DNA of 46,717 bases from Lentisphaeria bacterium (GCA_041690595.1 JAWLHB010000026.1:62001-108717); one strand, 5' to 3'; counted from the stretch's first letter, positions 5,189-45,607 are shown. Program-made: numbers and translations. The notes: a model not told the origin generated them from the sequence alone.

Positions 5189-6544
5189 CTACCTTGGATT
5201 TGGGTTCAGCACCTGCTGCTCGCCGGTGGCGCCGGGAGAGTAGCCGGTTGCCGGATTGACAATGGTGTTGGGTAAAGGAGGAATGGTGCCACTGATGAAA
5301 GGATCCTGCGTCTTCTTCATCCAGTTGTCGAGTCGCTGGCGCATCTCCTCAAGCCGCTCCGCATAGTCTGGATCCCCCACCAGGTTGGCCGCTTCGTTTG
5401 GATCTAGCATCAGATCGAAGAGGTATTCCGACTGCTGAGGCCGCTGCCGCCAGCCGTGCGCCACCAGAAACTGTTTGCTTATGCTGTCGTCGCAGTTGGT
5501 CAGGACGGGATGCTTGCGCGGCTCGAGGCGGCGTATGTACTTGAAGCGCTCGGTGCGTACGCAGCGTTGTGGTTCATACGCCGCATGAAAATTGACTTCG
5601 GCAAAGATGGCCTCGTGAAGACTCTCGCGGGAGCCGTCCACCAGAGGAAGCATGGAGCTGCCCTGCAACCACTCCGGCCGCTCCAGGCCACACAACTCGC
5701 ACAGGGTGGGGTAGATGTCCAGGTGACTGACCATGGCTGGGATGCATTTTCCCCCGGTGAAGCCGCCGGGGCCTCGCACGATCAGCATCACCCCGATGCC
5801 ATGGTCCGTGAGGTTGCACTTCATGTGTGGGAAAGCGATGCCGTGGTCCGTCGTGCAGATGATCAACGTCTTCTCCCTGAGCCCAGCCCGGTCGACTGCC
5901 GCCACCACCCTGCCCATGAAACTATCGAGCCGCTTGGCCGCGATTTTGAAATCGGCGAAATCTCGGCGGGTTTCGGGTGTATCCGGGAGGGGCGACGGTG
6001 GCTGGCAGTACCGCGGATCCCCAAGCGGCGAGTCGTTGCCGCAATGCCACTGCAGGCTGTCGCTGTCGTGCTGGGTGCGATGGGTGAGTCCATAGCCGCA
6101 CGCGAGAAAGAAGGGTCGGTCATGCTCGCTGGCGATGAACGCTTCGGCCGCGGCGGTGGCCATTTCCGCATTGCCGTCATCGTCGCCGAGTACCTGCTGA
6201 TAGGGTGGCTTGAGGTTGCCGTTGATCACATGCTGCGCGCCCACCCGCACCGTCCGATAGCCGGCGGCATTGAAGCTGGCGGCCATGTGCTGTCCATAGT
6301 CATTGAGCCGACCGCCCCGGTGACTCAGGGCAAGCATGCCGTTGCTGTGCGCCCACATGCCGGTAAGGAGGCAGGCGCGGCTGGGCGAGCAGGTCGGATT
6401 GCCGCAGAATGCCTTGCGGAACAGGACACCCTCTTCCGCCAGTCGTTGCAGATTAGGCGTTTCGACCGCGAAGCCGTAGGGCTGTATGTAGCGGCCCGTG
6501 TCGTGCGAATGCAGATAGATCACATGTGGACGAGAGGAATTCAC
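5189..6544 (-). CDS. Sulfatase (formylglycine-dependent, N-sulfoglucosamine sulfohydrolase-like)
   Basis: PHVIYLHSHD, CSPSRACLLTG (CxPxR), TTDHG and YLFDL..DPNE..NL. GTG start preceded by GGAGG. Confidence 0.92.
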   Translation of the reverse strand: MNSSRPHVIYLHSHDTGRYIQPYGFAVETPNLQRLAEEGVLFRKAFCGNPTCSPSRACLLTGMWAHSNGMLALSHRGGRLNDYGQHMAASFNAAGYRTVRVGAQHVINGNLKPPYQQVLGDDDGNAEMATAAAEAFIASEHDRPFFLACGYGLTHRTQHDSDSLQWHCGNDSPLGDPRYCQPPSPLPDTPETRRDFADFKIAAKRLDSFMGRVVAAVDRAGLREKTLIICTTDHGIAFPHMKCNLTDHGIGVMLIVRGPGGFTGGKCIPAMVSHLDIYPTLCELCGLERPEWLQGSSMLPLVDGSRESLHEAIFAEVNFHAAYEPQRCVRTERFKYIRRLEPRKHPVLTNCDDSISKQFLVAHGWRQRPQQSEYLFDLMLDPNEAANLVGDPDYAERLEEMRQRLDNWMKKTQDPFISGTIPPLPNTIVNPATGYSPGATGEQQVLNPNPR

Positions 6545-6658: not shown

Positions 6659-7393
6659 TCAGCGATCCATCCATTGTGGAATGCCGAGACGCTGCCACTC
6701 CTGTTCGGAGGAAAAGTCGTCAATGTGGCCATCGAGAAAAACGGCATTCAGACGGAGAGTTCCCTGATGGCGAAACCCGAAGTTGGGATGGGTGCTGCCT
6801 AGCGTATACGGGAAGACCCAGCTCGATGTGGCGCCCCGATTGCTGAAGACGCTGTCGTAGTACAGGGGACAGATGTCCGGACGGCGGATGCGATTCGACT
6901 TGGAGGTTCCACCCCGATTGCGCAAGCTCCACCAGGTGTTCTGGATGGCGAAGGCCGTCGAGCAACCGAGCCAGTTGTTGTAGCCATAGTCCGCGTTCTT
7001 GATGCCGGTGTAACGTTGCGCGGCTGGCGTCGTCGGACATCCCAGCGGCCCCTTCAGCGAAACGACCCAATCCGTTTCCGCTGTGCCGCTCCAGACATAG
7101 CTCCCGCCGACATAGCTGCCTTCCACAAGCGCGATCAGGTTCTTCATCCCCGCCCGCGTACCCCTGTACGTATCCGGATAGATGGTAGGATAGAAATAGT
7201 CGTCGGAATCGCCGACATACATGGTCGAGGCCAGACCTATCTGGCGAAGATTGTTCTGACACTCGCTGGCACGCGCCATGGCACGGGCACGACTCAAGGC
7301 AGGTAGCAGCAGGGACGCCAGGACGGCTATGATTGCCACGACTACAAGCAGCTCGATCAACGTGAAGCAACGGTTCGTACCGGATTGTTTCAT
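6659..7393 (-). CDS. Prepilin-type N-terminal cleavage/methylation protein with C-terminal H-X11-DG motif (DUF1559-like)
   Basis: [28 protein letters not shown]...CQNNLRQIG, central GCP, and [15 protein letters not shown]. Confidence 0.9.
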
Positions 7394-7519: not shown

Positions 7520-8647
7520 TCAGACTTCGTTGCGGAAGTAGTTGTGGATGTTCTCCACCATGAAGTCGAGGTCGTCCTGAGTCAGGAATTGGTGGCACCC
7601 CATGTGCAGACCATTTTCCCCGACATATTCGGCTTCGGGGAAATCGCCGATCTTGTGTCCAATCCAGGCGAACGTCTCATGCTGAGTTGGCAGACTGCCA
7701 AAGTTCAACTTGCACTGGATGCCATGCTCTTCGAGGTAGGCATACATGCGGGTGAAGTTCAGGCTGGGATCCTTCAACGTAATGCTGAAGGCGTGCGGGC
7801 AGAGGACCTCATGTTCCTCTTCCTGGTTGAACCAGGCGAATTCGGACAGATCGGCGCAATTCTCCATCAGGTACCGCAGGTTCTTCTTGCGGGTCGTGAA
7901 GGTCTCCCAGAAGACGTCAATCGCTTCCAGGCCCAGTGAAGCTTCCAGATCGTTCATCTTGGAGTTGAAGCCAAGCCGGACGAAGTCGAAATAGAGTTTG
8001 CCATCGCGCCGACCGTGGGTGCGGGTGGAACGCAGAACCGCGGCAACTTCCGGATTGTTGGTCGAAACCATGCCCCCTTCGCCGCAGCAGATAAGGTGCG
8101 CGACATAGTAGCTGAAGGTGGCGGCATCGCTGTGGCTGCCGACAAAGTCGCCTCTGTACTTCGCTCCATGTGCTTCGCAGGCGTCCTCCAGGACCTTCAG
8201 GCCATGCTCGCGGGCGATTGCAAGGATCATGTCCATCTCGCAGGGTTTCCCCATGGTATGGACCACCTGAATGGCGCGGGTCCTGGGTGTAATGGCCGCT
8301 TCGATGCGGGTCGGGTCGATGTTCATCGTCTCGCGTTCGATATCCACAAAGACCGGCATGAACCCCGCCGCCAGCACCGCATTGCTGCTGGCGACAAAGG
8401 AAAGGGCCGGTACGATGATCTCATCGCCACGCCGCGCGCCAAAGTCGTGCAGCATCGCACAGGCGTTGATGCCGGCATCGGTACCGGAACTCATGGCGAT
8501 ATTCTCACGATAGCCGAAGAGGTTGCCCCATTTTTCCTCAAACTCCCTGACCTTCGGTCCGCCGGTGGCCCAGTTGGTGTCGCAGCAGTGCAGGAGGTTG
8601 GCACGAGCCTTCTCGCCGATGTGCAATTCGCCGAACTTAATCCGCAT
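7520..8647 (-). CDS. DegT/DnrJ/EryC1/StrS-fold PLP enzyme with active-site His (ColD/E1-type NDP-4-keto-sugar 3-dehydratase)
   Basis: SSGTDA, GDEIIVPALSF, VLEDACEAHG. FSYYVAHLICCGEGG has His where aminotransferases carry the Schiff-base Lys. Start placed at ATG 8647. Confidence 0.8.
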   Translation of the reverse strand: MRIKFGELHIGEKARANLLHCCDTNWATGGPKVREFEEKWGNLFGYRENIAMSSGTDAGINACAMLHDFGARRGDEIIVPALSFVASSNAVLAAGFMPVFVDIERETMNIDPTRIEAAITPRTRAIQVVHTMGKPCEMDMILAIAREHGLKVLEDACEAHGAKYRGDFVGSHSDAATFSYYVAHLICCGEGGMVSTNNPEVAAVLRSTRTHGRRDGKLYFDFVRLGFNSKMNDLEASLGLEAIDVFWETFTTRKKNLRYLMENCADLSEFAWFNQEEEHEVLCPHAFSITLKDPSLNFTRMYAYLEEHGIQCKLNFGSLPTQHETFAWIGHKIGDFPEAEYVGENGLHMGCHQFLTQDDLDFMVENIHNYFRNEV

Positions 8648-8712
8648 GAGGTCTTCCAATTATCAAGTGTTTTGTGGGGGAAAACTAAAGGAAACTGCCA
8701 GATGATCCGTCT

Positions 8713-9756
8713 TCAGAACGGGCCGCGAAACTCCATCTCCCGCAGGTCACGCCGCTCTTCCGGCAGCCAGTCGTCCGCGATTCCAGTCACCATTCCCTTT
8801 GCTTTGGCGGCAATGGTGCGTGCATTAGGATAATAGAGATTCTCCAATACCGGCGAAGGCGGACAGGCGGTGGGAGCAAAACCGAGCCTTGCTAGCTTCG
8901 GCAGGCGGTCACTCCACTCCGCTTCGGCCATGCAGGCAAGGATCTCCGCCGCGGCCCCGCAGGTGCTCCAACCATTGTCGATCGCCAGCAGGCGACCCGT
9001 CTTGCGCGCCGATGTGAGGATGGTCTCATGGTCGAGCGGCGACAACCAGATCGGGTCGATGACTTCGGCGCTGATGCCGATATCCTCCAGATACTGCGCC
9101 GCGCGATACGCTTCGAGCGCCATATACGAGACCCCGACGATGGTCACGTCCGTGCCCTCGCGCATGATTCGCGCCTTGCCGAGGGGCAACTCGTACATGG
9201 CTTCCGGTACCGCGGCCTTCGTGAAGTGCAGCAGTCGCTGTTCCACGTAAAGGACGGGATTCGGCTCACGAACAGCTGCGATCAAGGCCCCTTTTGCATC
9301 ATACGGCGTCGTTGGCGCTACCACCCGTATGCCGGGAACATTCATCAGTTGGGCATAAAGCCCCTGCGAATGCTGCGCTCCCTGTCCCCAGCTTTTCCCG
9401 ATCATTGCCCGAATGGTCAGCGGCACGCTGGTCTGACCGCCATACATGTAGTGGGCCTTGGCGCCGAGATTCACCAGCTGGTTCATCGCCAGCATCAGGA
9501 AGTCCATGCGGATGTGCACGTGAATCGGTTTGAGCCCCGCCATGGCCATGCCGATGCCGGCCGCCGTCATCGCATCTTCCGAAAGTGGCGTACCGAAGAC
9601 GCGTCTGGCTCCGTACTTCGCGAGCAGGCCCGCGGTCGTGCCCTGGATGGCTTTGGGGTCATCCACATCGAGACCGTAGATCAGAACATCCGGGTCGCTC
9701 TGCATAAGTTGATCGGTGGCTTCCCGCACGGCTTCCACATAGGTGATTTCGCGCAT
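8713..9756 (-). CDS. TPP-dependent dehydrogenase E1 beta subunit-like (transketolase C-terminal family)
   Basis: RVFGTPLSE, GAQHSQ, PTTPYDAKG, GKARIMREGTDVTIV and EVIDPIWLSPLD. Confidence 0.88.
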   Translation of the reverse strand: MREITYVEAVREATDQLMQSDPDVLIYGLDVDDPKAIQGTTAGLLAKYGARRVFGTPLSEDAMTAAGIGMAMAGLKPIHVHIRMDFLMLAMNQLVNLGAKAHYMYGGQTSVPLTIRAMIGKSWGQGAQHSQGLYAQLMNVPGIRVVAPTTPYDAKGALIAAVREPNPVLYVEQRLLHFTKAAVPEAMYELPLGKARIMREGTDVTIVGVSYMALEAYRAAQYLEDIGISAEVIDPIWLSPLDHETILTSARKTGRLLAIDNGWSTCGAAAEILACMAEAEWSDRLPKLARLGFAPTACPPSPVLENLYYPNARTIAAKAKGMVTGIADDWLPEERRDLREMEFRGPF

Positions 9757-9759
9757 GGT

Positions 9760-10740
9760 TCAGCCCTCCCTCGTCTTGTAGACATCACGCAGCAGTTCAT
9801 CGGCAGGCGGCCACGGGCTGCTCTCGGCAAAATCGATGGCAGCCGCCAGTTCTTCTTCCACCACGGCCTCGAGCCGCTGACGCAGATCGGTATCCACCAG
9901 CGTGGCCAGTTGCCGCACCGGGTCATCCTTCCGCCAGATCTCGGCATCGTCTTCAGTGCGGTAACCAAGGTGGAAATCCTCGCCAGGACCGACATGCTCC
10001 TTGTAGCGATAGCACTGGCATTCGAGCAGCCGCGGCCCATCGCCCGCACGGATGCGCTCGATCGTCGCGCCGGCCACTTCATGCAGCGTCATGACGTTGT
10101 TGCCCACCATTTCCGAGGGGACACCGATGGCAGCCGCGCGTCCGGCAATATCGCATCGGGCCTGTCGCTTGCTCTGATGCGTATGGATCGCGTAGAAGTT
10201 GTTCTCGCAGACGAAAAGGATGGGGAGCTGCTTGAGCGCCGCGAAGTTCATGCTTTCGTAGAAAATGCCCTCCTCGCTGGCGCCATCGCCAAAGAAGCAG
10301 ACCACGATGCCGGGCAACTGCCGGTACTGGTGCGCATAGGCATAGCCAGTCGCATTGCCGATGCCCGTACCCACCACCGCCGAGGTGCCGAGCACATTGG
10401 CGGCGCTGTCCACCAGGTGCATCGAGCCGGCCTTGCCCTTGGCGCAGCCGGTCCCCTTCCCGAACAGCTCGGCCATCATGGCGCGAAGATCGCCCCCCTT
10501 GGCCAGGTAGGCCGCGTGGCTGCGATACGACGAAAAGACCACATCGTCCGGGCGCAGGTGCGCGCAGATCGCCACGGCTACACCTTCCTGCCCGATCGAC
10601 AAATGCACCGGGCTGCGTATCTTGTCCGTCGGATACAGGCGCGCAATCTCCTCTTCGGCTCGCCGGATGCGGTAAGCCTGTGCGTACATCTCTCCTGCAA
10701 CATCCATCATGCAAAGTCCTTCTGGCAAAGCTGCCTCCAC
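9760..10740 (-). CDS. TPP-dependent dehydrogenase E1 alpha subunit-like
   Basis: HLSIGQE, YRSH, GKAGSMH and the TPP motif GDGASEEG...ENN, plus YRYKEH. The true start may be ATG 10710. Confidence 0.88.
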   Translation of the reverse strand: MEAALPEGLCMMDVAGEMYAQAYRIRRAEEEIARLYPTDKIRSPVHLSIGQEGVAVAICAHLRPDDVVFSSYRSHAAYLAKGGDLRAMMAELFGKGTGCAKGKAGSMHLVDSAANVLGTSAVVGTGIGNATGYAYAHQYRQLPGIVVCFFGDGASEEGIFYESMNFAALKQLPILFVCENNFYAIHTHQSKRQARCDIAGRAAAIGVPSEMVGNNVMTLHEVAGATIERIRAGDGPRLLECQCYRYKEHVGPGEDFHLGYRTEDDAEIWRKDDPVRQLATLVDTDLRQRLEAVVEEELAAAIDFAESSPWPPADELLRDVYKTREG

Positions 10741-10743
10741 ACG

Positions 10744-12240
10744 TTAACTGCTGAGCGCGCCGGTCGCTTCTTCGACGATGCGGCGGCGAAGCTTGATCTT
10801 CGTCATTCGTTTGATGTGCTCCACTACCTTGCCGCCAAACTTTCGCTCGACCATCCGCAGATAGCCTTCGCTGGAGAAGTAGTCGTCGAAGGCGCGATCG
10901 CGGAACTGCAGGATCTGCCAGGATTCGAGTGCTTCACTGGAGAGGGGCAGCGAGTCATAACCATGCTGCGAGAAGTGATGCCATTTCTCCGGCAGGCGCA
11001 GTCCCGCCGCGACTGCATCGCGATACAGTTTCGATCCCGGATAGGCCATCGCACAGTAGAAGTTGGCAAATTCGCAGTTCAACTCCTTGGCCATGTCCAG
11101 CGTCTGCTTCATGCTCTCGTTGGTGTCATCCGGCAGACCGAAGATGAAATTGCCGAGAACATGAAGGCCGGCGTTCTGAATGCGGCGGACGGTGTCGATG
11201 ATGTCGTCGTTGCCGTAGCGCTTCTCCGCTCCGTCGCGCACGTACTCGCTGGCGCTCTCGATGCCGAGGCAGATCCAGTTGATGCCCGCCCGCTTGAGTC
11301 GCTCCAGAAACTCGTCCTTCACGGTGTCTACCCGCGCGTAAGCCCAGATATTTACCTCGTAATCGCGCTCTGCCAGCAGGTCACAGATACCATTCACATG
11401 ACGCTTGTTGAGGACGAACATCTCGTCGACGAACTTGATATTCCTGACCCCGTACTGGTAGACAAGCTTGTCGATCTCGGCGATGACTGTCTCAGGTTCC
11501 CAGCGCCGGTAGGTGGCGGGACCGAAGGGCGCGTTGATGCAGCAGAACGAACACTTGTATGGGCAGCCGAGGGTGGTATGAATGGAGGCATACGGCGCGC
11601 GTTGGTCTATGTGGTCGAAGCAGTGCCAGTTGTGCGCGCGATAGAGGCTCATGTCCATCAATTCCCAGGCGATGCCGGGCATCTCCGCATCAAGATCCTT
11701 GATGAGGATCTCTGGAGCCGACGGCGGAACGATACGCTTGCCATCGCGCCACCAGAGGCTGGGAATGTCACCGAAAGAGCCACCGCTCTTGAGCGCCATG
11801 AGCGTTCTGTAGATGGTGACGGGCCCTTCGGCATCGCAGGCGAAATCGATCTCCTCCTCGCGCATGGTGCGCTCAGGCAAGGCGGCAATGTGAGTCCCCG
11901 TCATGAGGATCGGCATGGATGGGGAGCCTGCCTTGACAAAACTGGCGATCTCGCCGGCGGCGGTCATGTTCTGCGTGGAGGCCGATGGCTGATACCCATA
12001 GACGGCCAGTACGACAAGGCGGGGGGAATAGAGCTCCAGGGCAAGCTCGGATACCTGGCGCGTGTTCAGCCCCAGCCCGGGCGCGTCGAGAATGGCGACG
12101 CTGATTCCCTTGCGCATCAGGTAAGTCGCATAGAGCCCCGCGAAGGCAGGTGGCTCGATGCCGCAGAACTCGTCCGCCAGATCCTGGTAGATCTCTTTGC
12201 GGTTGCCCGGATTGATAAAAAGAACATCGACTGATTGCAT
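10744..12240 (-). CDS. B12-binding domain radical SAM protein
   Basis: N-terminal cobalamin-binding Rossmann-like region (EPP..AG...ILMTGTH...EGP), CPYKCSFC (CxxxCxxC), FVDEMF, LGIESAS, FIFGLPDDT and YPGS. Confidence 0.92.
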   Translation of the reverse strand: MQSVDVLFINPGNRKEIYQDLADEFCGIEPPAFAGLYATYLMRKGISVAILDAPGLGLNTRQVSELALELYSPRLVVLAVYGYQPSASTQNMTAAGEIASFVKAGSPSMPILMTGTHIAALPERTMREEEIDFACDAEGPVTIYRTLMALKSGGSFGDIPSLWWRDGKRIVPPSAPEILIKDLDAEMPGIAWELMDMSLYRAHNWHCFDHIDQRAPYASIHTTLGCPYKCSFCCINAPFGPATYRRWEPETVIAEIDKLVYQYGVRNIKFVDEMFVLNKRHVNGICDLLAERDYEVNIWAYARVDTVKDEFLERLKRAGINWICLGIESASEYVRDGAEKRYGNDDIIDTVRRIQNAGLHVLGNFIFGLPDDTNESMKQTLDMAKELNCEFANFYCAMAYPGSKLYRDAVAAGLRLPEKWHHFSQHGYDSLPLSSEALESWQILQFRDRAFDDYFSSEGYLRMVERKFGGKVVEHIKRMTKIKLRRRIVEEATGALSS

Positions 12241-12279
12241 GAGAAGCTCTCCGGATTGAATGCCTTGGTCGCTGAATCG

Positions 12280-13233
12280 TCAGAGTGAAAGAGGCGGTTT
12301 GATCATGTGTGCAAGGTACCAGTCACAGGTGGTGCGCAATGCCTCGTGCAGCTCCCATCGGGGCTGCCAACCCATACCGATCAGTTCCGTGGTATCGAGT
12401 GCCTTGATGGGGGCGCCATCTGGTTTAGTAGAATCGAAGACGAGTCTGCCGCCATAGCCGGTAACCTGTCGGATGGCCTCGGCCAGCTCGCCTATGCTGT
12501 AATGCGTGCCGGAACCGATGTTCACCGGCAATGCATCATTATAGGAATTCAGGAGGTACAAACAAGCATCGGCAACGTCATCCACGTAAATGAAATCCCG
12601 GCGCGCCACGCCTGTGCCCCAGATCTCGACCTGCGAGCTCTTCTCCTGCCGCGCGCGAACCATGCGGCGGATAAGGGCTCCGATAACGTGGGCATTCTCT
12701 TCATCGAAGGAATCCCACGGCCCGAAAGGCCCGGACGGAATCGCACAGATCGCCGGTGTTCCGTACTGGCTGCGGCAGGCTTGGGTCAGGATCATGCCCG
12801 AGCGCTTTGCCTGGGCATAGGGCTCGCTCGTTGGCTCGAGGGGACCGGCCCCCAGAACGGAAGGAGTCATGGGCTGGGCGGCATCACGGGGATACACGCA
12901 GGAGCTGCCAAGGTAGAGGATCTTGCGGATGGGTAGTTGCCGCGCCGCGTCCAGGTAGGCCAGAGCGACGTGAAGGTTGTTCATCATCAGCGTGGCAGGC
13001 TCCCGGCGGTTGCGACCGATGCCGCCACATTCGCCCGCGGCTACCAGGATGTAGTCCGGCCGAAACTGTTTCAGCCTGGCGAATACCGCCGCCGCGTCCG
13101 TCGCCTCCGGGGCGCCGGATTCATCCGACTCCACGGAATAGCCTCCCGCGGCCCGCGCCAGCCGAACCACGGCTCGACCGATCAGATGATCCGCTCCAGC
13201 CACAAACAGTCGTATGGAATGCTCAGTTGACAC
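12280..13233 (-). CDS. GDP-L-fucose synthase-like epimerase/reductase (Fcl/ColC family SDR)
   Basis: GGIGRN, LYLGSSCVYP, LEPTSEPYAQAK (YxxxK), HVIGALI, WGTGVARRDFIYVDD and KPDG. The Rossmann motif is degenerate (GADHLIG). Confidence 0.88.
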   Translation of the reverse strand: MSTEHSIRLFVAGADHLIGRAVVRLARAAGGYSVESDESGAPEATDAAAVFARLKQFRPDYILVAAGECGGIGRNRREPATLMMNNLHVALAYLDAARQLPIRKILYLGSSCVYPRDAAQPMTPSVLGAGPLEPTSEPYAQAKRSGMILTQACRSQYGTPAICAIPSGPFGPWDSFDEENAHVIGALIRRMVRARQEKSSQVEIWGTGVARRDFIYVDDVADACLYLLNSYNDALPVNIGSGTHYSIGELAEAIRQVTGYGGRLVFDSTKPDGAPIKALDTTELIGMGWQPRWELHEALRTTCDWYLAHMIKPPLSL

Positions 13234-14254
13234 TCAGCCGATTCTCCTGCTTGACGGTCGAGTAGTCGATCTCCTCGTCGTAGTAGACGATCTGCGAGCC
13301 ATTGGGCTCGAACTCGAATGGCACGTGCAGGCAGTCGCTCAGTTCGAAGCGGATGCGATCATGCTCTTCGGGCGGGGCAAAGAGAAGCATGAATCCGCCG
13401 CCGCCGGCACCCGCCACCTTGCCGCCGATGGCGCCTGCCTTTCTGGCCCGTTCATAGAGGCTGTCGATGAAGGGCGTCGACACCTGTGCACTCAATGACC
13501 GCTTTACCAGCCAGGCTTCATGCAACAGCTCACCGAAGGCTGTGATGTCGCTTTCGCCGGTGATGATTGCCATGGCCGGATCCACCATCTCCTGCAGGCG
13601 CGTCAGCTGCTCGCTGCACTGGGAGATGTCGGCCACATAGCTGCTCGCCACCTGGGCCGCGGTGCGGGAGATGCCCGTGAAGAAGAGCAGCATGTGGCTC
13701 TCCAGCAGCTTGCGCCGTTTCGCCGTCAACGCCACCGGCGTGACGACAAAACTCTCGTCCGACTTGAACTCGATGCGGTTGAGCCCGCCATAAGCCGCCG
13801 AAACCTGATCCTGCGAACCGACCACCTCGCGTATCACATTCTGTTCCACGTGAATGGCTTCCCGCGCCAGCCGCTCACGACTGATCATCTTGCCATGCAG
13901 AGCATTCAAGGCATTGAGCAGGCCGACGGTAAAGGTGCTGCTGGAGCCGATGCCGCTCCGCGCCGGCAGGTCACCGTCGTGGTGCAGCTCCACCCCGCGC
14001 GTCTCGTGCAGGTGCTGCAGGCACGCTTTTACGGCGGGATGCTGGATCTCGTGGGGCTCTTTGACGGTCTCGATTCTGGACCAGACGATGCGCGAACGGT
14101 GCTCGAAGAAGGGGGGCAGATAGCGGCAGGTAATGTAGCAGTACTTGTCGATGGTGGTTGCCAGAACGGCGCCACCGTGCTGCCGGTACCACTGCGGATA
14201 GTCGGTGCCGCCACCAAAGAAAGATAAACGATATGGGGTACGGCTGATGATCAC
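13223..14254 (-). CDS. hddA: GHMP kinase, D-glycero-alpha-D-manno-heptose-7-phosphate kinase-like
   Basis: IISRTPYRLSFFGGGTDYP, LPARSGIGSSST, GSQDQ and GAGGGGF. GTG start at 14254 in a GTGA overlap with the upstream stop. Confidence 0.85.
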   Translation of the reverse strand: MIISRTPYRLSFFGGGTDYPQWYRQHGGAVLATTIDKYCYITCRYLPPFFEHRSRIVWSRIETVKEPHEIQHPAVKACLQHLHETRGVELHHDGDLPARSGIGSSSTFTVGLLNALNALHGKMISRERLAREAIHVEQNVIREVVGSQDQVSAAYGGLNRIEFKSDESFVVTPVALTAKRRKLLESHMLLFFTGISRTAAQVASSYVADISQCSEQLTRLQEMVDPAMAIITGESDITAFGELLHEAWLVKRSLSAQVSTPFIDSLYERARKAGAIGGKVAGAGGGGFMLLFAPPEEHDRIRFELSDCLHVPFEFEPNGSQIVYYDEEIDYSTVKQENRLSVN

Positions 14255-15006
14255 GTTGAAGCCTCCGGTGTGGTGGCGGGTGCGTCGAAGAAATGCGAGG
14301 CTTGCCGCAGCCGTTCCGGGGTCCCGATATCCAGGAAGCGACCAGCTGCCTGGACACCATGGAGACCGCTGCCGATCCATGCGGGGAAAATATCGCGTTC
14401 AAGCGAGAGCGGTCGCCGCGCGGGTAGACCGGCGAGTGCCTTTCGGGTGAAGAGATAGATGCCGGCGTTGATCCAGCCCGGGCCGCTATGCTCGCCCTTT
14501 TCGCGAAAGTCGGTAATGGCGCCGTCCCGGGCCTGCTCTACCTGGCCGAAGCTGCTGCACTCCTCCACGTGTGTGAGGAGCAGGCTGGCAGGCGCCTCGC
14601 GGGCGATGGCTTCGGTCACGAACGCGGAGAGGTTGGCGGCGATATAGCTGTCGCCATTCATGACCAGGATGTGCTTGCTCTTCAGGTGTGGCAAAGCCAG
14701 CACCAAGGCCCCGCCGGTCCCGGCAGGTTCATCTTCGAAGGAGTATTCGAGGCTGAGGCTGTTGAAGCTGTCGCCCAGAAGCGCACGAACGGCTTCCGCG
14801 CGATAGCCCAACCCCAGCACCACCCGGCTACAGCCATGCTCCTCCACCTGGCGCAGCAGGCGATGGATAAAGGGCTCGCCATGGATCGGGGTCGTCACCT
14901 TCTGCTCGTTGCCGATAGCGGCTTTGAGCCTGGTACCGAGCCCTCCGGCAAGGATGAAGGTGTCGATCTCCTTCAGAGCATGCATGTTGGCATCAGCTTT
15001 AGACAT
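14251..15006 (-). CDS. hddC: Sugar-1-phosphate nucleotidyltransferase, D-glycero-alpha-D-manno-heptose-1-phosphate guanylyltransferase-like
   Basis: ILAGGLGTRL, EDEPAGTGGA, VMNGDS, FREK, INAGIY, SLERDIFP and FLDIGTPE. Coupled to the hddA-like kinase. Confidence 0.8.
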   Translation of the reverse strand: MSKADANMHALKEIDTFILAGGLGTRLKAAIGNEQKVTTPIHGEPFIHRLLRQVEEHGCSRVVLGLGYRAEAVRALLGDSFNSLSLEYSFEDEPAGTGGALVLALPHLKSKHILVMNGDSYIAANLSAFVTEAIAREAPASLLLTHVEECSSFGQVEQARDGAITDFREKGEHSGPGWINAGIYLFTRKALAGLPARRPLSLERDIFPAWIGSGLHGVQAAGRFLDIGTPERLRQASHFFDAPATTPEAST

Positions 15007-15937
15007 TCGTGTACTGCGACCGCACCAGCATCCGGTAGCCCTTGATCAATTCGCCGATGCCGTACCGCAGACTCCGGCGGGCTTCGAAACCGCTCTCGCG
15101 CAGCCGCTGGTTGCTCACAATGTAGTTGCGCTTGTCCGGGTCTTCGCCAATTTCGGCATAGTGAACGAAGAAGGTCGGCACCTGCTCTTTGATGGCTTCG
15201 GCCAGCTCCGCTTTCGAGAGATTGGCATCATCCAGCCCGGCATTGTACGGTCGCCCCTTCATCGCATCACGATTCCGCAGGACATGCTGGAAGGCATCCG
15301 CTACATCGCGCACGTGAATGTAGTTGCGTTTGAAATCTTTCTCGAAGATGACGATATATCCGTCGGTGACGGCGACATACGTGAAATGATTCACCAGCAG
15401 ATCCAAGCGCATGCGGGGGGAGCAGCCGAAGACCGTTGCCAAACGCAGCGTTACGACATTGTCGCTGTCGAGCAGCAGGTTTTCGGCATCGCATTTGGTG
15501 CGTCCGTAGAGGCTGATCGGCTCGAGGGCGGTCTCTTCGGTGCAGAAGGTTTCGCCGGTGTTGGCGCCGTAGCCGCTGTTTGTATTGGGGTAGATGACGA
15601 ACTGGTCACGGCTGCGAAGTCGGTTGAGAAGCTCGATGGCTCCAAAGTTGGTGGTGCGGGCCGCGGTCTGGTCCATGTCACAGGCCTTGGCCCCGACGAT
15701 GGCGGCCAGGGGAATGACGGCGTCTGCTTTGGTCAGGAGAGGCTTGAGGATCCCCTCGTCACGAGCATCGCCTCGAACAAAGTCGAAGGCGTCGTAGTGG
15801 CACAGGTGCAATAGGCTGCTGACCGCATGATGGCCCGCATCGAGCACCGTAACCACATAACCAGACTGCAACAGGTGCTCGCAGAGGATGGAGCCAAGAT
15901 AGCCGGCTCCGCCAGTTATCAGAATCCGTTCGGGCAT
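14999..15937 (-). CDS. NAD-dependent SDR epimerase/dehydrogenase, Cj1427-like GDP-heptose 4-dehydrogenase
   Basis: TGGAGYLGS, IPLAAIVGA, YPNTNSGYG, PISLYGRTK, RLATVFG.SPRMRLDLLVN and IGEDPDKR. These match my recollection of Campylobacter jejuni Cj1427 (not aligned here). Start placed at ATG 15937. Confidence 0.78.
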   Translation of the reverse strand: MPERILITGGAGYLGSILCEHLLQSGYVVTVLDAGHHAVSSLLHLCHYDAFDFVRGDARDEGILKPLLTKADAVIPLAAIVGAKACDMDQTAARTTNFGAIELLNRLRSRDQFVIYPNTNSGYGANTGETFCTEETALEPISLYGRTKCDAENLLLDSDNVVTLRLATVFGCSPRMRLDLLVNHFTYVAVTDGYIVIFEKDFKRNYIHVRDVADAFQHVLRNRDAMKGRPYNAGLDDANLSKAELAEAIKEQVPTFFVHYAEIGEDPDKRNYIVSNQRLRESGFEARRSLRYGIGELIKGYRMLVRSQYTNV

Positions 15938-15995
15938 GATCGATCTACTGGTTAAGTTTGAAAACTGCGACGATTGCGCTCTCAACCGTCAGTCA

Positions 15996-16023
15996 ACTAT
16001 ATTGCCGGCTCAAACAGTTGCAA
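15996..16023 (-). promoter_or_regulatory. Candidate internal sigma70 promoter for the NDP-sugar genes
   Basis: Minus strand TTGCAA (16018-16023), 16 bp, TATAGT (15996-16001), in the only large gap of the operon. Confidence 0.35.
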
Positions 16024-16084
16024 TGACGAATGGCTGGAATCGAACTGATTGCTGATGGCGAGGAGCCTCACCGTTGCTCGCGCA

Positions 16085-16915
16085 TCAGCATGAATTGATA
16101 ACCTTGGTTCTGGCTTGCTCGGACAGGCGAATACTTTGCTCGATTCGTGCCTGGCAGGCGGCTGGATCGGGGGGAGGCAGCGGGTATGCTTTGTCAGGCT
16201 TGGGCCGATAGAATATCTCGCGAAAGGTCTGTACCAGGTAAACGGCTCCCCATCGCCAGATCTGCAGCTTTCGCTCCCCTCCGATGCGATCTGGTTCGTC
16301 ACCGGGTATCTCATCGATCCTGCACTTGTTCGCGGCAGCGCGTATGGATAACAGCGGTTCGCAGCCCGAAACGGTGCCGAAGATCCGCTCCATGGGTTGA
16401 TAGGCCGACTCGCTGAACATATCCAGCTCATAAGCGAGCTGAGTGCGATAGGCGCGATACATGACCATGCAATCCGTGTACCTGCCGCCATGAAACAGGT
16501 TGATCAGGCGGTTGAACATCCAGTTGCCGAAGGCGGTGATGGTATCGTCCTCGTCGCTCTTGGCGTCATCCTTGTACCGAGAGACAATGACCATGTCATA
16601 GCCCTCGCGCATCTTGGCAATGAGCGGGGGCAGGCGATCGGCCAGCGAGCCGCCATCTGGCGCGAAGGTGATGACGATGTCGCCGCGAATGAGAGGCCAA
16701 GCCTCCTCGTAGGCTTTGCGGATGCCTCTTGCCTCCTGAACATAGACATCGTACCCTTGCTCCAGGCAGTATTCGATGGTACCATCGGTCGACCCACCAT
16801 CCACCACGAGGATCTGGTCGATCCACGTGGGATCGATATCCGGCATGGTAGCCTGGAGACCGGGCAGTTCATTCCAGGTCACCAGCATGAGTGTGATTGA
16901 AAGTGGTTTGTCCAT
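16085..16915 (-). CDS. Glycosyltransferase family 2, polyprenol-phosphate glycosyltransferase (DPM1/GtrB-like)
   Basis: TWNE, ILVVDGGSTDGT, GDIVITFAPDG, GYDMVIVSRY, YTDCMVMYRAY and RIGGERK. Start placed at ATG 16915 (ORF extends to 16972). Confidence 0.85.
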   Translation of the reverse strand: MDKPLSITLMLVTWNELPGLQATMPDIDPTWIDQILVVDGGSTDGTIEYCLEQGYDVYVQEARGIRKAYEEAWPLIRGDIVITFAPDGGSLADRLPPLIAKMREGYDMVIVSRYKDDAKSDEDDTITAFGNWMFNRLINLFHGGRYTDCMVMYRAYRTQLAYELDMFSESAYQPMERIFGTVSGCEPLLSIRAAANKCRIDEIPGDEPDRIGGERKLQIWRWGAVYLVQTFREIFYRPKPDKAYPLPPPDPAACQARIEQSIRLSEQARTKVINSC

Positions 16916-16994
16916 GTTCGGCGGTTTGATCCTGTCTGGGGGTGTCGATTGAACCGATAAAATAGGAGTCAAGCGTGAGCTTTCAAGCCGTAGC

Positions 16995-18626
16995 TCAGGA
17001 GCCGCTCTCCGGTTCTGCCGGTCTGTGCTTCACCAGGAACCACTTGCCCCACTGCCACTCCAACTCGTAATCGTTGCGCAGCCACTGCTCCAGATCGAGC
17101 CAGCGGATGATCGATCTGATTGAGGCGTTCTCGATCTCGGTGAAGCTGTGCAGCAGCATCCACTTCGGTGGATTCGTCAGCAGGGCCTGACGGAACTCAT
17201 CGCGTTTCTCTCCTGGAAATGGCAGGACCTCAGTCTGGAAGATGAAGGGCGCGGGGGTAAAGCTCTCCCGCCCTGTCAAGCCATAGATCCACGTGCCGTA
17301 TGGCATGACAAGCAGGGAATCCTCGGTTGGCACGCGCTCATTGACGGCACGAATGGCGCGATCAAGCCCTTCGCCCAACTCCGGATTGCATTTCCAGCCG
17401 CGAAACGCTTTGACTTGAAGTGCATAGGTGCTGTCATTGTTCTGTGGATTCCAGTGCCAGGTGAGCATGCGGCGGCTCCATCCCGTCTCCAATGTCTGCC
17501 AGGCAAGTGCGAGTAACCAGAGCTGGAGGGCAACGGAGAAGGCGAAGGTCCACCGGTTGCGACGCGGTTGCCGCGGCAGATGGCTGCCTAACCGCATGAG
17601 GCAGGCCAGTTGAACGCCCAACATGGCAAGAGCGGCATGGGGAATCATCGAACCCGTCCACGCGGCCAGGAGGCCGGTGAAAAGAAGCCCCCCCGTCATG
17701 ACCACGACATGGCGGTGCTCGTGCACAAATCGCCAGCGTCCGATGGCGCAAAGCACCAGGAAGGTGATGACATAATAGATGTAGGGAGTCACCACCAAGA
17801 GCCAGGCCAGCTTCAGTGTATCGCTGAACCTGCTGCCCGGTGAGTAGGCAAGCAGCGTCTGATAGACGAAGGCGGGTACATCGATCAGGACCAGAAAGAC
17901 GAGTCCGGCCAGAGCGCAGCCCGCGCAATAGGCGATGAATGCGATCTTTGGCCTGGAGCCGACCAGAAAGAGTGCGGCCAGCGTCAAACCGGCGCCACCA
18001 CCCACGTTAGCTTTGGTCATCAGCGATAAGACGGCGAGGATGCCGGCCGTCACCCCAACCAGCGCTGCCGTTCGGTTACTGGCATAGGGCGAGAAGAAGT
18101 CGACGAGCAAGACCGCCATGATCAACCAGAAGAAGGCATTGTTGTCGTACCAGGGATGGCCGATGGTGCAGTAGAAGACCAGCCCGCAGACCACTGTCGG
18201 CACCAGGGCCATCCACCACGGCAGGCGCTTGCGCGCAATCAGATAGGTCGCTGCCACGACCGCGGCATTGACCACTGCGAGGTGACTCAAGACCGCCATT
18301 CTGGTGAAACCAAAGATGGCGAAAGAGAGCGCGTGCATGTACAGGTGCACGGGGCCGGCTATATACATGAAATCGACGTATGGCTCCTGGCCGCGGTAGA
18401 CACGCCAGCCGGCATCGAGGAAGGCCGACATATCGAAAAAGTCAAAACGATTCTGCGCCAGGTAGCACATGTAGAACGAGCTGAGTGCCGCGATGAAGCC
18501 CACGATCACGGTCTCCATGCCAAGGCGCAGCCAGCGTGACTTCGGCTCGAAGGCAGGGAGCTTCAAACCTTCCCGTGGCACGGCAGGCTGATCGGCGGAA
18601 TCGGGTGTGGAAGATGCCTCCGTCAT
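16995..18626 (-). CDS. Multi-pass membrane protein, putative GT-C fold glycosyltransferase
   Basis: About 11-12 hydrophobic segments. The first loop DFFDMSAFLDAGWRVYRGQEPYVDFMYIAGP has acidic residues as in ArnT/PMT-like enzymes, and there is a soluble C-terminal domain. Adjacent to the GT2 gene. Confidence 0.65.
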   Translation of the reverse strand: MTEASSTPDSADQPAVPREGLKLPAFEPKSRWLRLGMETVIVGFIAALSSFYMCYLAQNRFDFFDMSAFLDAGWRVYRGQEPYVDFMYIAGPVHLYMHALSFAIFGFTRMAVLSHLAVVNAAVVAATYLIARKRLPWWMALVPTVVCGLVFYCTIGHPWYDNNAFFWLIMAVLLVDFFSPYASNRTAALVGVTAGILAVLSLMTKANVGGGAGLTLAALFLVGSRPKIAFIAYCAGCALAGLVFLVLIDVPAFVYQTLLAYSPGSRFSDTLKLAWLLVVTPYIYYVITFLVLCAIGRWRFVHEHRHVVVMTGGLLFTGLLAAWTGSMIPHAALAMLGVQLACLMRLGSHLPRQPRRNRWTFAFSVALQLWLLALAWQTLETGWSRRMLTWHWNPQNNDSTYALQVKAFRGWKCNPELGEGLDRAIRAVNERVPTEDSLLVMPYGTWIYGLTGRESFTPAPFIFQTEVLPFPGEKRDEFRQALLTNPPKWMLLHSFTEIENASIRSIIRWLDLEQWLRNDYELEWQWGKWFLVKHRPAEPESGS

Positions 18627-18629
18627 GAT

Positions 18630-20057
18630 CTATGGACTGTCTGCATCGCGCCACGGGATATGGTCTGGATTCTGGATCGGCAGCTTGGCATTCATGCGGG
18701 CGCGCCACGCTTTCAACATGGTGTGCAGCTCGGCCGTGAGCCGCGGTTCCTGCTCGGCGAGGTTCTGTTGCTCGGCAATATCATCCCGCAGATTGTAGAG
18801 CTCCAGGCTGCCGGTTTCGAAGAACTCGATGAGCTTCCAGTCACCGTGGCGAATGGAAGAACCCGGCGTGCCGCCCTGATTGCCGTAATGGGGATAGTGC
18901 CAGTAAATGGCCTCGCGCTCCAGAGCCTCCTCACCCTTCAGCAACGGCATCAGGCTGACGCCGTCCTGGTGTTGGTCCGGCCGCAACGGCAGGCCCGCCA
19001 TTTCCAGAATGGTTGGATAGAAGTCCGGGCTGGTCGTCGGCACCGAACAGGTTGTGCCGGCGGCGACGCGGTGTGGCCATTTGACAATGAGCGGCTCCCG
19101 GACCCCGCCCTCGTACATCCAGCCCTTCCCTTCGGCCAGGGGAGCATTGCTGGTGGGCGATCCTTCGGCTGTGGAGAGCCCACCGTTGTCGCTGGTGAAG
19201 AAAATCGCGGTGTTATCGGCTTGGCCACTCTCCTCGACTGCCTGCAGCAGCTTGCCGATGTTCTGGTCCATGTTGAAGACCATGGCCGCATAAACGGGAT
19301 CGGACTGAATGATGCGGCGCTGGATGCGCTGCGTCTTCTTGTGCAGGCAGGGAAAGTAATCGCCTTCGACGAGTGGCGCGATTCTGTCCAGCCCCAGTTT
19401 CCGGGCCTTGGCGGTGAAGTAGGCGATATCCTCCGGCTTGGCCTGAATGGGCGTATGTACGGCGTAGTGCCAGAGATTGAGGAAGTAAGGCTTACTGCCG
19501 TCATGCTCGCGAATGAGGCGCGCGGCTTCATCGCCGATATGATCGGTCAAGTATGTTCCGGCTGGAAGCTGGTCGCCGGGGAGATTGGGTATGAACCAGG
19601 GTGCAAAATAGCCCTTGAGGGGGCAACCCCATTCACAGCCACCGATATTGATGTCGAAACCATGCGTTTCGGGATAATGCGTGGCGCGGCCGAGGTGCCA
19701 TTTGCCGACGTGCCATGTCGTATAGCCGCCGTCACGCAACGCCGAGGCGATGGTCTGCTCCTCATGGGGGAGGAGGTCGATGTAGGGCGCATCGATGAGC
19801 CGACCCCGGGCGGGATGGCAATGCTTGCCCCAGTCGATCCAATCCGTGACGCCGACATTTGCCGGGTACTTGCCGCTCAAGATGCTGGCGCGAGTAGGGG
19901 AGCATACTGGGCAGGAGGCATAGGCATCGGTGAAGAGTATGCCTTCGGCTGCCAATTTGTCCAGGTTTGGCGTTTCATAAAATTCGCTGCCGTAGCAGCC
20001 GGTATCCCGCCAGCCATAGTCATCGAGCAGGATAAGGATGATATTGGGCTGTCCCAT
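18630..20057 (-). CDS. Sulfatase (arylsulfatase A-like)
   Basis: PNIILILLDD, CSPTRASILSG, HVGKWHLG, SDNGG, GKGWMYEGG and ELYNL..DIAE..NL. No signal peptide. Confidence 0.93.
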   Translation of the reverse strand: MGQPNIILILLDDYGWRDTGCYGSEFYETPNLDKLAAEGILFTDAYASCPVCSPTRASILSGKYPANVGVTDWIDWGKHCHPARGRLIDAPYIDLLPHEEQTIASALRDGGYTTWHVGKWHLGRATHYPETHGFDINIGGCEWGCPLKGYFAPWFIPNLPGDQLPAGTYLTDHIGDEAARLIREHDGSKPYFLNLWHYAVHTPIQAKPEDIAYFTAKARKLGLDRIAPLVEGDYFPCLHKKTQRIQRRIIQSDPVYAAMVFNMDQNIGKLLQAVEESGQADNTAIFFTSDNGGLSTAEGSPTSNAPLAEGKGWMYEGGVREPLIVKWPHRVAAGTTCSVPTTSPDFYPTILEMAGLPLRPDQHQDGVSLMPLLKGEEALEREAIYWHYPHYGNQGGTPGSSIRHGDWKLIEFFETGSLELYNLRDDIAEQQNLAEQEPRLTAELHTMLKAWRARMNAKLPIQNPDHIPWRDADSP

Positions 20058-38474: not shown

Positions 38475-39260
38475 TCACCAGTGGAGCCAGCCTCCAGCAC
38501 CCTGGTTGTACATGCGCCGCGGACCACCGCGAACCTTCCATTCGCCATGTCCATCGACGAAGGCAACATTCATGCCGTTGAGCATGCCATGATTGTTGCG
38601 GCTGTCGTGCCCCGAGGCATAAGTAGTCCATGTCAACTTGGTGACATGATAACCGTCGATGATCATGGGTTGGCTTTCGGCAGGATTGATATAGACGGTC
38701 TTTTGCGTCAGGGGATCGGTGCGTTTACTGCCGACGAACTCTTCATTGGGGATCATGGGGGCGATGGAATTGGGATTTGGGGTGGCGGAGATGCCATTGA
38801 TGTGCATGCCGTAGAACGTCCATCCGGCCTGGCTGGCAACATACGGTGCACGTGAGGCGATGAAGCGATAGGTGGCAATGCGCCAGCGAAAACCGAACCA
38901 CAGTTGCCTTGGCGGCCTGTAAGCACTGTCAAGGGGGCCGGCGAACTCGCTGTCGGGGCACATCAGGAGCTTCTCGTCCCCGATGATACCGAGGACATCG
39001 CCGGTGGTGTCCTGTCCGATGAGCGCCTGGGAGGTGTAGGTGCTCTGCATGTACCAGCCGTCATGTTCGCTGGCGTAGACCGACAGCCCCAGGGCAAGCT
39101 GGCGTTGATTGGAGCTGCACGTGCTCTTGCGGGCAGCGGCTCTTGCCTTAGCCAGGGCGGGAAGGAGCATCGAGGCGAGAATGGCTATGATCGCCACGAC
39201 CACGAGCAGCTCGATGAGGGTGAAGAGAAGAAGTCGCGCTGTGGGAGTTTTCTTCCGCAC
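38475..39260 (-). CDS. Prepilin-type N-terminal cleavage/methylation protein with H-X11-DG motif
   Basis: [28 protein letters not shown]...[11 protein letters not shown], and [18 protein letters not shown] start at 39260 after a GGAGG RBS. Confidence 0.9.
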
Positions 39261-39313
39261 CTGTCTGTCCTCCGGGTTGTTAAAGAGAATAAAGAGGTAC
39301 ACTACACGTTGGA

Positions 39314-43207: not shown

Positions 43208-43444
43208 GTGGGGCCTCCGAGAGTGATGCGGATGCAGGTGCGGCTTGAGTAAATGGTGAACGATTAAGGTAGACTGATTCCGCGAAGGATGCACGGGTTG
43301 AGGTGCAAATAGTTCCGGCGGCTCCAGAAATGAACCTCTGGATAGTTGGCAACATGACGTCACCGGGGCGAATTGGTGGGCTGCGCATTGCTATTCGAAC
43401 GAGGGCGGGTAAACTTCATTCTACACCAGCAGGTAGGACGCGAT

Positions 43445-44396: not shown

Positions 44397-44861
44397 ATGG
44401 CAACCGCTGAAGCTTTTCTGGCCGTTTACGAACCGTTCTGGCGCACGATTGACGTCACATCTCCCGACCGCCTCGATGCCCATGCGCCGGGGGAAGCATG
44501 GAGCGTGATGGATGTCATCGCGCATCTTCTTGATGCCGAGGTGCAGACCTACACGCGCCTGCGGACCATCCTCGCTGATGAGGAGCCACAACTGGTCAAT
44601 TACGATGAGGCGCGGTGGACCAAGGCACTGCCACGCACCATTGACCTCGCTGAAGCAAGATTGCTGGTCATGGGGTTACGCCGAGCTAACGCGGCGCTGA
44701 TTCAGAGATTGTCGCCGGAAGAGTTGCAGCGCACCGGCCGCCACAATCTGCGCGGTGATATTGTCCTGGGCGAACTGATCGAGATCTACACCAACCACGT
44801 GCGCGTCCATCTGCGGCAGGTCAATCGCATTCTCGAGGCACAAGAAAACGGCAACACCTAA
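44397..44861 (+). CDS. DinB/YfiT family metal-dependent protein
   Basis: [23 protein letters not shown] and NHVRVHLRQ (His triad). GGAGG RBS. Confidence 0.85.
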
Positions 44862-45580
44862 CGCATGGCCATGAAGAAGGAGCTGAGCTTGTAGTTGGTG
44901 TTGTTGCAGAGATCGGCATAGGGCGTGCCGCGAGCCAGGACGTGGTCGACATGGCCGTCAAGAAAGAGCGTGTTGAAGCCATTCCCGTGCTGCAGGTAGG
45001 GCATGTTGTTCTGATTGTAGGTGCGGATCGAGGCATAGTTGCCTTGCAGATAGTTGTAATCATGGGTAGCATCCACCAACCACGCGGTCAGCGTGGGCGT
45101 CGACGCGCGATTATACTTGACGATGGGGCGATTGGCCGTGACGGGGTTGTAGTCGGTGGCGCTTGCCGCATCGATATTGGCGGCATAGGTCGCGAAACGG
45201 AATTCGCTGGCGGGGCGCATGCCAATGGTTGGACACCACATGATCGTCTGCCTGCCGTAGGGACGACTGGTGGAGCCGAAGCCGGTCCCCGTCTGCACGT
45301 AGGGATGAAGCATGTCGATGAAGTGCGCCGTGAAGGCATAGTTGGCTGTCGCGGCGGTCACATACATGGCCTGGACGTAGTCATCGTGTTCCTCGACATA
45401 CAGGAACTGTCCCAGCCCGAGTTGCTTCAGATTGTTTTGACACTGGGAGCGCCTGGCCATCGCACGGGCCTTCCCAAGCGCCGGAAGAAGCATCGACGCA
45501 AGGAGCGCGATTATGGCTACCACGACCAGAAGCTCTATAAGGGTGAAGCGTCGTGAGTAGGGCTTGAGGACGTACGGCAT
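44858..45580 (-). CDS. Prepilin-type N-terminal cleavage/methylation protein with H-X9-DG motif
   Basis: [28 protein letters not shown]...[12 protein letters not shown], and [14 protein letters not shown]. Start at ATG 45580 (alternative GTG 45589). Confidence 0.9.
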
Positions 45581-45607
45581 GTGGGTCACCTGCGATAATG
45601 ATCGTTA

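Follow-up and report, generated by a model that had tools for sequence, protein, structure and literature searches.

The question raised by positions 7520 to 18626 of a 46,717-nt stretch of Lentisphaeria bacterium DNA (GCA_041690595.1 JAWLHB010000026.1:62001-108717; the whole stretch is called the window below) is which sugar is made by ten genes that combine GDP-heptose enzymes with a thiamine diphosphate (ThDP)-dependent E1 pair and a radical S-adenosylmethionine (radical SAM) enzyme. An earlier note on the window had read them as a compact operon for a branched, possibly carbocyclic, caryose-like sugar. The cassette is real, conserved and undescribed in the literature searched, and it very likely makes a C4-acyl-branched heptose derivative on which a non-methylating radical step then acts. 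That the product is a branched heptose is highly probable, and that it is a carbocycle of any kind is slightly better than an even chance; the particular outcome of a C7-C8 ring, by which a nine-carbon carbocycle with the skeleton of caryose (caryose itself or a stereoisomer of it) would be made for a glycoconjugate of the cell surface, is put forward tentatively, the ring closure being a proposal from the gene content.

Calling of open reading frames (ORFs) in the window showed that the region is occupied by ten ORFs, all on the minus strand, which are listed here from the upstream end:

16995..18626, minus strand: membrane glycosyltransferase of predicted GT-C fold, 543 aa (fold search; 8 hydrophobic segments in a simple scan).
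16085..16915, minus strand: putative family 2 glycosyltransferase (GT2), polyprenyl-phosphate glycosyltransferase-like (likely ATG at 16915; longest ORF from 16972).
14999..15937, minus strand: predicted Cj1427-type GDP-heptose C4 dehydrogenase, a short-chain dehydrogenase/reductase (SDR; match to 6VO6).
14251..15006, minus strand: HddC-like heptose-1-phosphate guanylyltransferase (profile and context).
13223..14254, minus strand: HddA-like heptose-7-phosphate kinase (profile; likely GTG start overlapping the HddC stop).
12280..13233, minus strand: Fcl-like SDR whose dinucleotide-binding motif has decayed; candidate C5 epimerase lacking reductase activity.
10744..12240, minus strand: radical SAM enzyme with an N-terminal B12-binding-like domain, proposed ring closer (unnamed large family).
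9760..10740, minus strand: ThDP enzyme E1alpha, proposed C4 carboligase (GDG motif at residue 151).
8713..9756, minus strand: ThDP enzyme E1beta.
7520..8647, minus strand: His-type pyridoxal phosphate (PLP) enzyme, ColD-like putative C3 dehydratase (likely ATG at 8647; longest ORF from 8659).

With the likely starts, 5/9 internal junctions were coupled, having gaps of -11 to +3 nt, and the remaining four measured 39-147 nt. Because the upstream sulfatase gene (18630-20057) was also coupled to the GT-C gene, with a 3-nt gap, the transcript may start upstream of the cassette; a promoter scan gave 5 sites versus 5.7 in shuffled sequence. The G+C content of the cassette (59.7%) was close to that of the genome (61.5%). 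The gene labels of the earlier note were upheld, and the same set recurred in plasmid, metagenome, genome and viral loci; thus, the gene set is more than a chance assembly.

Loci were gathered around the radical SAM gene from plasmids (3), metagenomes (80), genomes (20) and viruses (80), and the counts that follow are for the 80 loci with long flanks (at least 6-7 kb on both sides), near-duplicates being kept in. A ThDP enzyme was located near the radical SAM gene in 75 of these 80 loci, that is, 2/3 from plasmids, 16/16 from metagenomes, 15/15 from genomes and 42/46 from viruses. Counted among the 75 was L117, in which a weak ThDP pair lay 8 kb off, and the plasmid exception without an adjacent ThDP enzyme had an E1 pair 22 kb off. 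In one sample of 401 genomes of the host's phylum, the radical SAM gene was present in 25 and a Cj1427 orthologue in 57; the latter was found in 21/25 genomes with the radical SAM gene versus 36/376 without it (Fisher's p 3e-16, a value overstated in that kin are not independent). In the remaining four of the 25, HddA was on the same contig as the radical SAM gene, and in two of those four a GDP-heptose 4,6-dehydratase gene adjoined it (7US5, E 4e-113). The 36 genomes that have a Cj1427 orthologue but no radical SAM gene supplied a control set of 20 Cj1427 loci, one per genus, and a ThDP enzyme was present in the region in only 1/20, 8 kb off and on the opposite strand. Since a ThDP enzyme accompanies 75/80 loci with the radical SAM gene and 1/20 Cj1427 loci without it, the branching enzyme and the radical enzyme come as a pair.

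In one locus (L118), rfbF, rfbG and rfbH homologues adjoined the radical SAM gene, and action of the enzyme on a 3,6-dideoxyhexose was considered; this substrate was set aside because the L118 genome and four others without nearby heptose genes each carry HddA-like and Cj1427 orthologues elsewhere.

The E1alpha and E1beta proteins of the window possess the ThDP motif, stand inside a keto-sugar cluster and have no E2/E3 in the cassette; three further E1 pairs are encoded elsewhere in the same genome. Four ThDP architectures were observed beside the radical SAM gene: the E1 pair, a split transketolase (the most frequent in genome loci), a short pair and a decarboxylase type with a PanB-like neighbour. 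The short pair, two subunits of about 200 aa consisting of PP and PYR domains only, without the transketolase C-terminal domain, was found at L126:8018-9167, in L128 and L131, and in most viral loci, while in L178 (11514-14231), L198, L203 and L212 the radical SAM gene was immediately followed by genes for a PanB-like hydroxymethyltransferase and an acetolactate-synthase-type ThDP enzyme, which suggests that the branch is donated by a hydroxymethylated 2-oxo acid. In a FastTree tree of 77 rows the ThDP type switches at least 21 times, the least possible being 7, and one natural radical SAM-E1alpha fusion (P0357) was observed. A Cj1427 orthologue was present in 54/80 loci, a heptose 4,6-dehydratase in 9, and neither within the flanks in 17; a His-type PLP enzyme was present in 59/80, and nine loci combined it with the heptose 4,6-dehydratase. 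The 4-keto-heptose, its C7 and the acyl branch are thus constant, and the C3-OH, the C6-OH and the donor vary. On the simplest interpretation, C7 and the carbonyl of the branch are what the radical enzyme acts on.

Supply of the heptose is predicted from several genes. HddA was the best family for the window kinase (135 bits, under the NCBIfam cut-off of 600) and HddC the second-best for the window transferase (113 bits, under the cut-off of 300); both assignments are backed by context, with Cj1427, GmhA and heptose 4,6-dehydratase genes in related loci, and HddA was found in 17/18 long-flank loci. In the same genome, tblastn located a GmhA-like gene on contig C9 and GmhB-like genes on C13/C19/C25, the queries being presumed GmhA and GmhB from motifs and plasmid annotation. 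The window SDR matched 6VO6, which we take to be Cj1427 (the entry is titled putative sugar-nucleotide epimerase/dehydratase), with an E value of 1.7e-99 over residues 17-327, the next match being at 2.6e-19. It is assigned as a full-length Cj1427 orthologue, and 2-oxoglutarate-coupled oxidation of GDP-heptose is predicted for it. An L-2-hydroxyglutarate oxidase (LhgO) or a 2-hydroxyacid dehydrogenase was present in many related cassettes; one LhgO query gave no match in the window's genome. The PLP enzyme has His188 where perosamine synthase carries the catalytic Schiff-base Lys, and His occupied this position in 95/98 PLP sequences of the surveyed loci. Being closer to perosamine synthase (E 4e-56) than to ColD (E 1e-35), it is placed by its sequence in a separate His-type subfamily. 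GDP-3-deoxy-4-keto-heptose has been made in vitro with Cj1427 and a Campylobacter C3-dehydratase (accessible part of PMC10680097).

The Fcl-like SDR (match at E 5e-77) scored 301 bits with the Fcl profile versus a cut-off of 500 and grouped with seven other cassette Fcls in a clade of eight (support 100/99). All members of this clade (8/8) have lost the middle Gly of GxxGxxG but retain the Cys, His and Tyr-x3-Lys positions, and the motif is kept in 12/12 Fcls of control loci. In alignments to 1E6U and 8DU0, the protein kept the Ser, Tyr-x3-Lys, epimerase Cys and His positions, which we take to be the catalytic residues of Fcl. It is therefore regarded as a candidate C5 epimerase without reductase activity; a C4 reductase would be unwanted if C4 becomes branched.

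Taken together, these proteins suggest the following route. The Cj1427 orthologue would oxidise C4 of GDP-heptose, an activity shown for its orthologue, and the His-type PLP enzyme would remove the C3-OH, as shown in vitro for the Campylobacter C3-dehydratase on the same intermediate. The Fcl-like protein may invert C5 while leaving C4 unreduced. The E1 pair would add a pyruvate-derived acetyl unit to C4, by analogy with the alphaKADH2 enzymes and as suggested by co-occurrence. The radical SAM enzyme may then abstract a hydrogen from C7, and the radical would add to the branch carbonyl to form a cyclopentane without change of mass. Finally, GT2 would load the sugar on polyprenyl phosphate and the GT-C protein would transfer it outside the cytoplasm. 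GT2 matched the profiles of AglJ, Dol-P-hexose transferase and also ArnC, and GT2s 51-62% identical to it adjoin the radical SAM gene in other loci. The GT-C protein had no Pfam or NCBIfam match, but its model (pLDDT 80.6) gave AglB/STT3/DPY19/ArnT as top Foldseek matches (E 7e-6 to 5e-5, TM 0.40-0.54); PMT_2 was matched on 5/11 GT-C homologues, and an 806-aa homologue (P0332) with a GT2 domain represented a GT2/GT-C fusion. The probable role of the GT-C protein is thus to hand the sugar over from polyprenyl phosphate to an acceptor outside the cytoplasm.

The steps as far as the C4-acyl-branched 3-deoxy-heptose, as laid out in the earlier note, find good support in orthology, in the co-occurrence with its controls and in the published in vitro synthesis of GDP-3-deoxy-4-keto-heptose (accessible part of PMC10680097). 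For the radical C7-C8 ring closure proposed in the same note, the ThDP pairing, relatives with a truncated cobalamin domain (see below) and the fit of the caryose stereocentres speak in favour, and this step stays a proposal. By the naming rules and Fischer projections, D-ido in the name of caryose spans C2, C4, C5 and C6. The published name contains L-erythro-D-ido (PMC9092360), which by these rules gives a manno-type C2, a D-glycero C6 as in GDP-D,D-manno-heptose, and an inverted C5; the fit to the route is modest evidence. The C5 inversion matches the action of a 5-epimerase, and the window has that combination of genes together with an acetyl-type partner, alphaKADH2 enzymes being reported to give only C2 acetyl-type branches (accessible part of PMC12247030).

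Several observations weigh against caryose or against ring closure. By analogy, caryose could arise from a 4-keto-3,6-dideoxyhexose and a C3 branch, and a route from a GDP-mannose-derived dideoxyhexose, an extension of the unifying scheme (accessible part of PMC9306805), would likewise lead to a manno C2. Caryan is built as a (1->7) homopolymer (accessible part of PMC9026286), and the window has a GT2/GT-C route for a single sugar. Six other cassette Fcls (L034, L050, L054, L061, L072 and L116) keep GxxGxxG, and an Fcl is missing altogether from many cassettes; variants in stereochemistry must therefore exist. Four viral loci of one clade (L165, L195, L204 and L209) contain the radical SAM gene but show no ThDP enzyme within the sequence at hand; they carry a carbamoyltransferase gene and several unannotated ORFs of about 430 aa, for which no informative Pfam match was obtained. 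Among solved folds, the radical SAM model comes closest to AprD4, a sugar diol dehydratase (Z 29.1, rmsd 3.3, 413 residues aligned; next Z 26.1). Non-methylating B12 radical SAM enzymes and methylases are inseparable by structural features according to the accessible part of a 2026 review (PMC12931638). No member of the family has an established reaction, and no carrier of the cassette is tied to a known glycan structure. As to the source organism of caryose, Trinickia (Burkholderia) caryophylli, for which a complete genome exists (PMC11895463), scanning the genome collection with a published T. caryophylli primer (accessible part of PMC9322674) gave one match, in a Pirellulaceae metagenome-assembled genome, that is consistent with chance and silent on presence or absence; Trinickia was not among the 240 radical SAM homologues listed, most of which are without organism names.

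How the radical SAM protein is related to known enzymes bears on what else it might do. It possesses CxxxCxxC at residues 226-233 and the B12-binding-like domain, and 7,929 relatives were found at E<=1e-50 among 8,000 candidates scored. It fits no curated family: the best NCBIfam match was HpnJ (TIGR03471; 154.9 bits versus a cut-off of 577.6), and for 55 aligned members of the family the best E value was likewise for HpnJ, followed by BchE, both described as non-methylases (accessible part of PMC9204698). Because the two classes are structurally inseparable according to the review cited above, such rankings of hidden Markov models are weak evidence. AprD4 gave TM 0.71/0.77 and an identity of 20-22%, with 83 bits versus a cut-off of 500; an ESM Atlas search with the radical SAM protein added nothing. 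Some relatives differ in architecture: P0343, P0366, P0439 and P0483 have intein or LAGLIDADG insertions, and in P0382 both the radical SAM and the B12 domain were matched twice.

It is unlikely that the radical SAM enzyme tailors the sugar without methylation and without forming the C7-C8 bond, whether by AprD4-like dehydration, radical epimerisation, oxidation or an HpnJ/Cds-like ring contraction, perhaps once the sugar is on the lipid carrier; the product would then be either a 3-deoxy sugar with an acyl branch and no added ring or a cyclitol formed by ring contraction. AprD4 is the best match in the PDB by both sequence and fold, HpnJ scores best in NCBIfam, lipid-linked sugars are the proposed substrates of HpnJ and Cds (accessible part of PMC13459092), and the one viral clade without a ThDP partner would agree with such chemistry. 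However, the nine loci with both the 4,6-dehydratase and the His-type PLP enzyme leave no vicinal diol on the heptose for an AprD4-type reaction; none of the reactions needs a ThDP partner, yet the genes travel together; and several compact cassettes (e.g., L049, L056, L060 and L068) contain no further SDR, as judged by homology to the reference set, for the branch ketone.

Bradyrhizose is gluco-type at C2, a mismatch to manno-heptose, and this disfavours one form of a different ring built on the same branched heptose, namely a six-membered, inositol-fused carbocycle of the bradyrhizose type, in which C7, once oxidised or activated by the radical SAM enzyme, joins the carbon beside the branch carbonyl; the other form would be a cyclic ether. 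A ring of either kind is rather unlikely in the window. Split-transketolase partners, the commonest in genome loci, are proposed hydroxyacetyl donors (accessible part of PMC12247030), the viral PanB-like hydroxymethyltransferase and decarboxylase-type ThDP enzyme could supply a longer hydroxylated branch, and one of the as yet uncharacterised bradyrhizose genes encodes a 4,6-dehydratase (accessible part of PMC4743980). The partner in the window, however, is an E1 pair, of the class for which only C2 acetyl-type branches are reported, and a methyl group is no acceptor for a C7 radical.

Cobalamin-dependent C-methylation to an open, branched C10 sugar, which the earlier note had held as the alternative, is now the weaker reading and appears improbable. 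Most annotated B12 radical SAM enzymes are methylases (accessible part of PMC9204698). The B12-like domain of the window protein is full length (Pfam 30.8 bits versus a cut-off of 32.1) and aligns with those of TsrM, TokK and OxsB; MgmA, CysS, OxsB and TsrM gave Z 25-26 with the model, and the host uses cobalamin, as indicated by a B12-dependent methionine synthase (MetH) gene at 39698-43363 of the window. On the other hand, the Trp that follows the Cys motif of TokK-type methylases (accessible part of PMC9204698) is absent, and a profile search detected shorter relatives, of about 395-450 aa, which keep the family motifs and are missing part of the cobalamin domain; in family members of 372-443 aa it is the C-terminal part of this domain that is gone. 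Among 73 further viral loci, 17 had a radical SAM form of <445 aa, and a ThDP neighbour was present in 15 of the 17 (two duplicate pairs included); in L216, L231, L240/L283 and L243 the Gly-x-His motif was also lost and the ThDP neighbour kept. Methylation is less likely because relatives with much of the cobalamin domain deleted retain the ThDP context: a cobalamin methyltransferase should not survive such a deletion, although the short forms could have changed function.

Very improbable is an ordinary unbranched 3-deoxy-heptose made by the Cj1427 and ColD-like enzymes with Fcl as C4 reductase, the E1 pair and the radical SAM enzyme serving something else, for which it can be said that the Ser, Tyr, Lys, Cys and His positions are conserved in the Fcl-like protein and that GDP-3-deoxy-heptoses have been made in vitro with such enzymes (accessible part of PMC10680097), but loci with Cj1427, Fcl and HddA and no radical SAM gene have a ThDP enzyme in 1/20 and Fcls from another clade with the motif intact, and the E1 pair has no adjacent E2/E3 in a genome with three other E1 pairs.

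The reading of the operon as a local oddity did not hold: it is a mobile cassette found across several phyla, plasmids and viruses in many variants. The plasmid collection gave four radical SAM matches, three in Azospirillum and one in Solidesulfovibrio. Plasmid pDMC1 of Solidesulfovibrio magneticus (L006:13173-30322) has a complete cassette in a cultured organism, with NUDIX, LhgO and SIS-domain (GmhA-like) proteins, two GT2s and a lipid-carrier glycosyltransferase in addition, and IS66 elements adjacent. Plasmid p6 of Azospirillum lipoferum 4B (L005 and L214) carries the cassette in two pieces separated by about 22 kb, with TPR/GT41 and sulfotransferase genes close by. Herbaspirillum lusitanum was the sole cultured species named among the radical SAM homologues listed. 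The family was present on 206 viral contig stretches, and the annotated phage collection gave no match to it. The minimal module of the viral contigs (L134-L213 and L216-L288) consisted of a Cj1427-like enzyme or a heptose 4,6-dehydratase, the radical SAM enzyme and the short ThDP pair, often with a His-type PLP enzyme, and HddA was nearby in only 8/46 long-flank viral loci; this module may glycosylate virions, viral DNA or the host surface. As for the surroundings in the window, sulfatases flank the cassette and three short prepilin-type/DUF1559-like genes are present (5189-6544, 6659-7393, 38475-39302 and 44858-45589 for these genes together).

The entry steps of the cassette (HddA/HddC, Cj1427 and the C3-dehydratase of HS:5) are shared with the capsular heptose pathways of Campylobacter jejuni (accessible part of PMC10680097); those pathways, which also contain epimerases, reduce the C4 ketone by means of C4-reductases, whereas the cassette has the ThDP pair, the radical SAM enzyme and an Fcl-like protein with a decayed cofactor motif. 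ThDP-dependent acyl-branched sugars are made by YerE, ErwE and MMAR_2332 for lipopolysaccharide (LPS) and lipooligosaccharide, and acyl transfer to a keto sugar without E2/E3, as proposed for the cassette, is carried out by the alphaKADH2 pairs of aldgamycin, kibdelomycin, paulomycin and avilamycin and by the split transketolases of miharamycin and amipurimycin (accessible parts of PMC12247030 and PMC9306805). The published acceptors are deoxy-keto sugars, with alphaKADH2 and transketolase types in antibiotic pathways, and the word heptose occurs 0 times in the accessible part of PMC12247030; the cassette would differ in its GDP-heptose acceptor, its surface glycan product and a radical SAM partner in place of a YerF-like reductase. 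HpnJ, PtmC and the calditol synthase Cds are radical SAM enzymes with a B12 domain that, like the cassette enzyme, are proposed to convert a sugar into a cyclopentane, but they are proposed to contract a hexose ring on a lipid or carrier, whereas the cassette enzyme would add a second ring to a nucleotide sugar. AprD4, a radical SAM 1,2-diol dehydratase, is closest in fold and acts on a sugar, yet some cassettes leave no ring diol. Caryose, found as caryan in T. caryophylli, and bradyrhizose, from photosynthetic Bradyrhizobium, are carbocyclic LPS sugars, and the skeleton and named stereocentres of caryose fit the route. The biosynthetic origin of caryose was stated to be unknown in a 2022 review (PMC9092360), and the literature searched, mostly outside subscription journals, gave no description of the cassette, of a caryose pathway or of ThDP branching of GDP-heptose for surface glycans.

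It is possible, though somewhat short of an even chance, that the whole radical SAM family is a nucleotide-sugar carbocyclase which, in a pinacol-type radical reaction with cobalamin optional, links C7 of GDP-heptose to the acyl branch set in place by the ThDP enzyme, and that the window encodes the caryose route itself. If so, swappable ThDP partners, optional C3 and C6 deoxygenation and C5 epimerisation would generate an entire class of carbocyclic sugars at cell surfaces, with caryose, and perhaps bradyrhizose, as the only examples isolated; the radical SAM superfamily would gain a new reaction, and carbocyclic sugars would be common rather than curiosities (25/401 genomes and 206 viral stretches). 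The cassette offers a concrete, reconstitutable route to caryose-type sugars, an early intermediate of which has already been made enzymatically. Even without the ring, ThDP branching of GDP-heptose for surface glycans would be a kind of biosynthesis absent from the literature searched.

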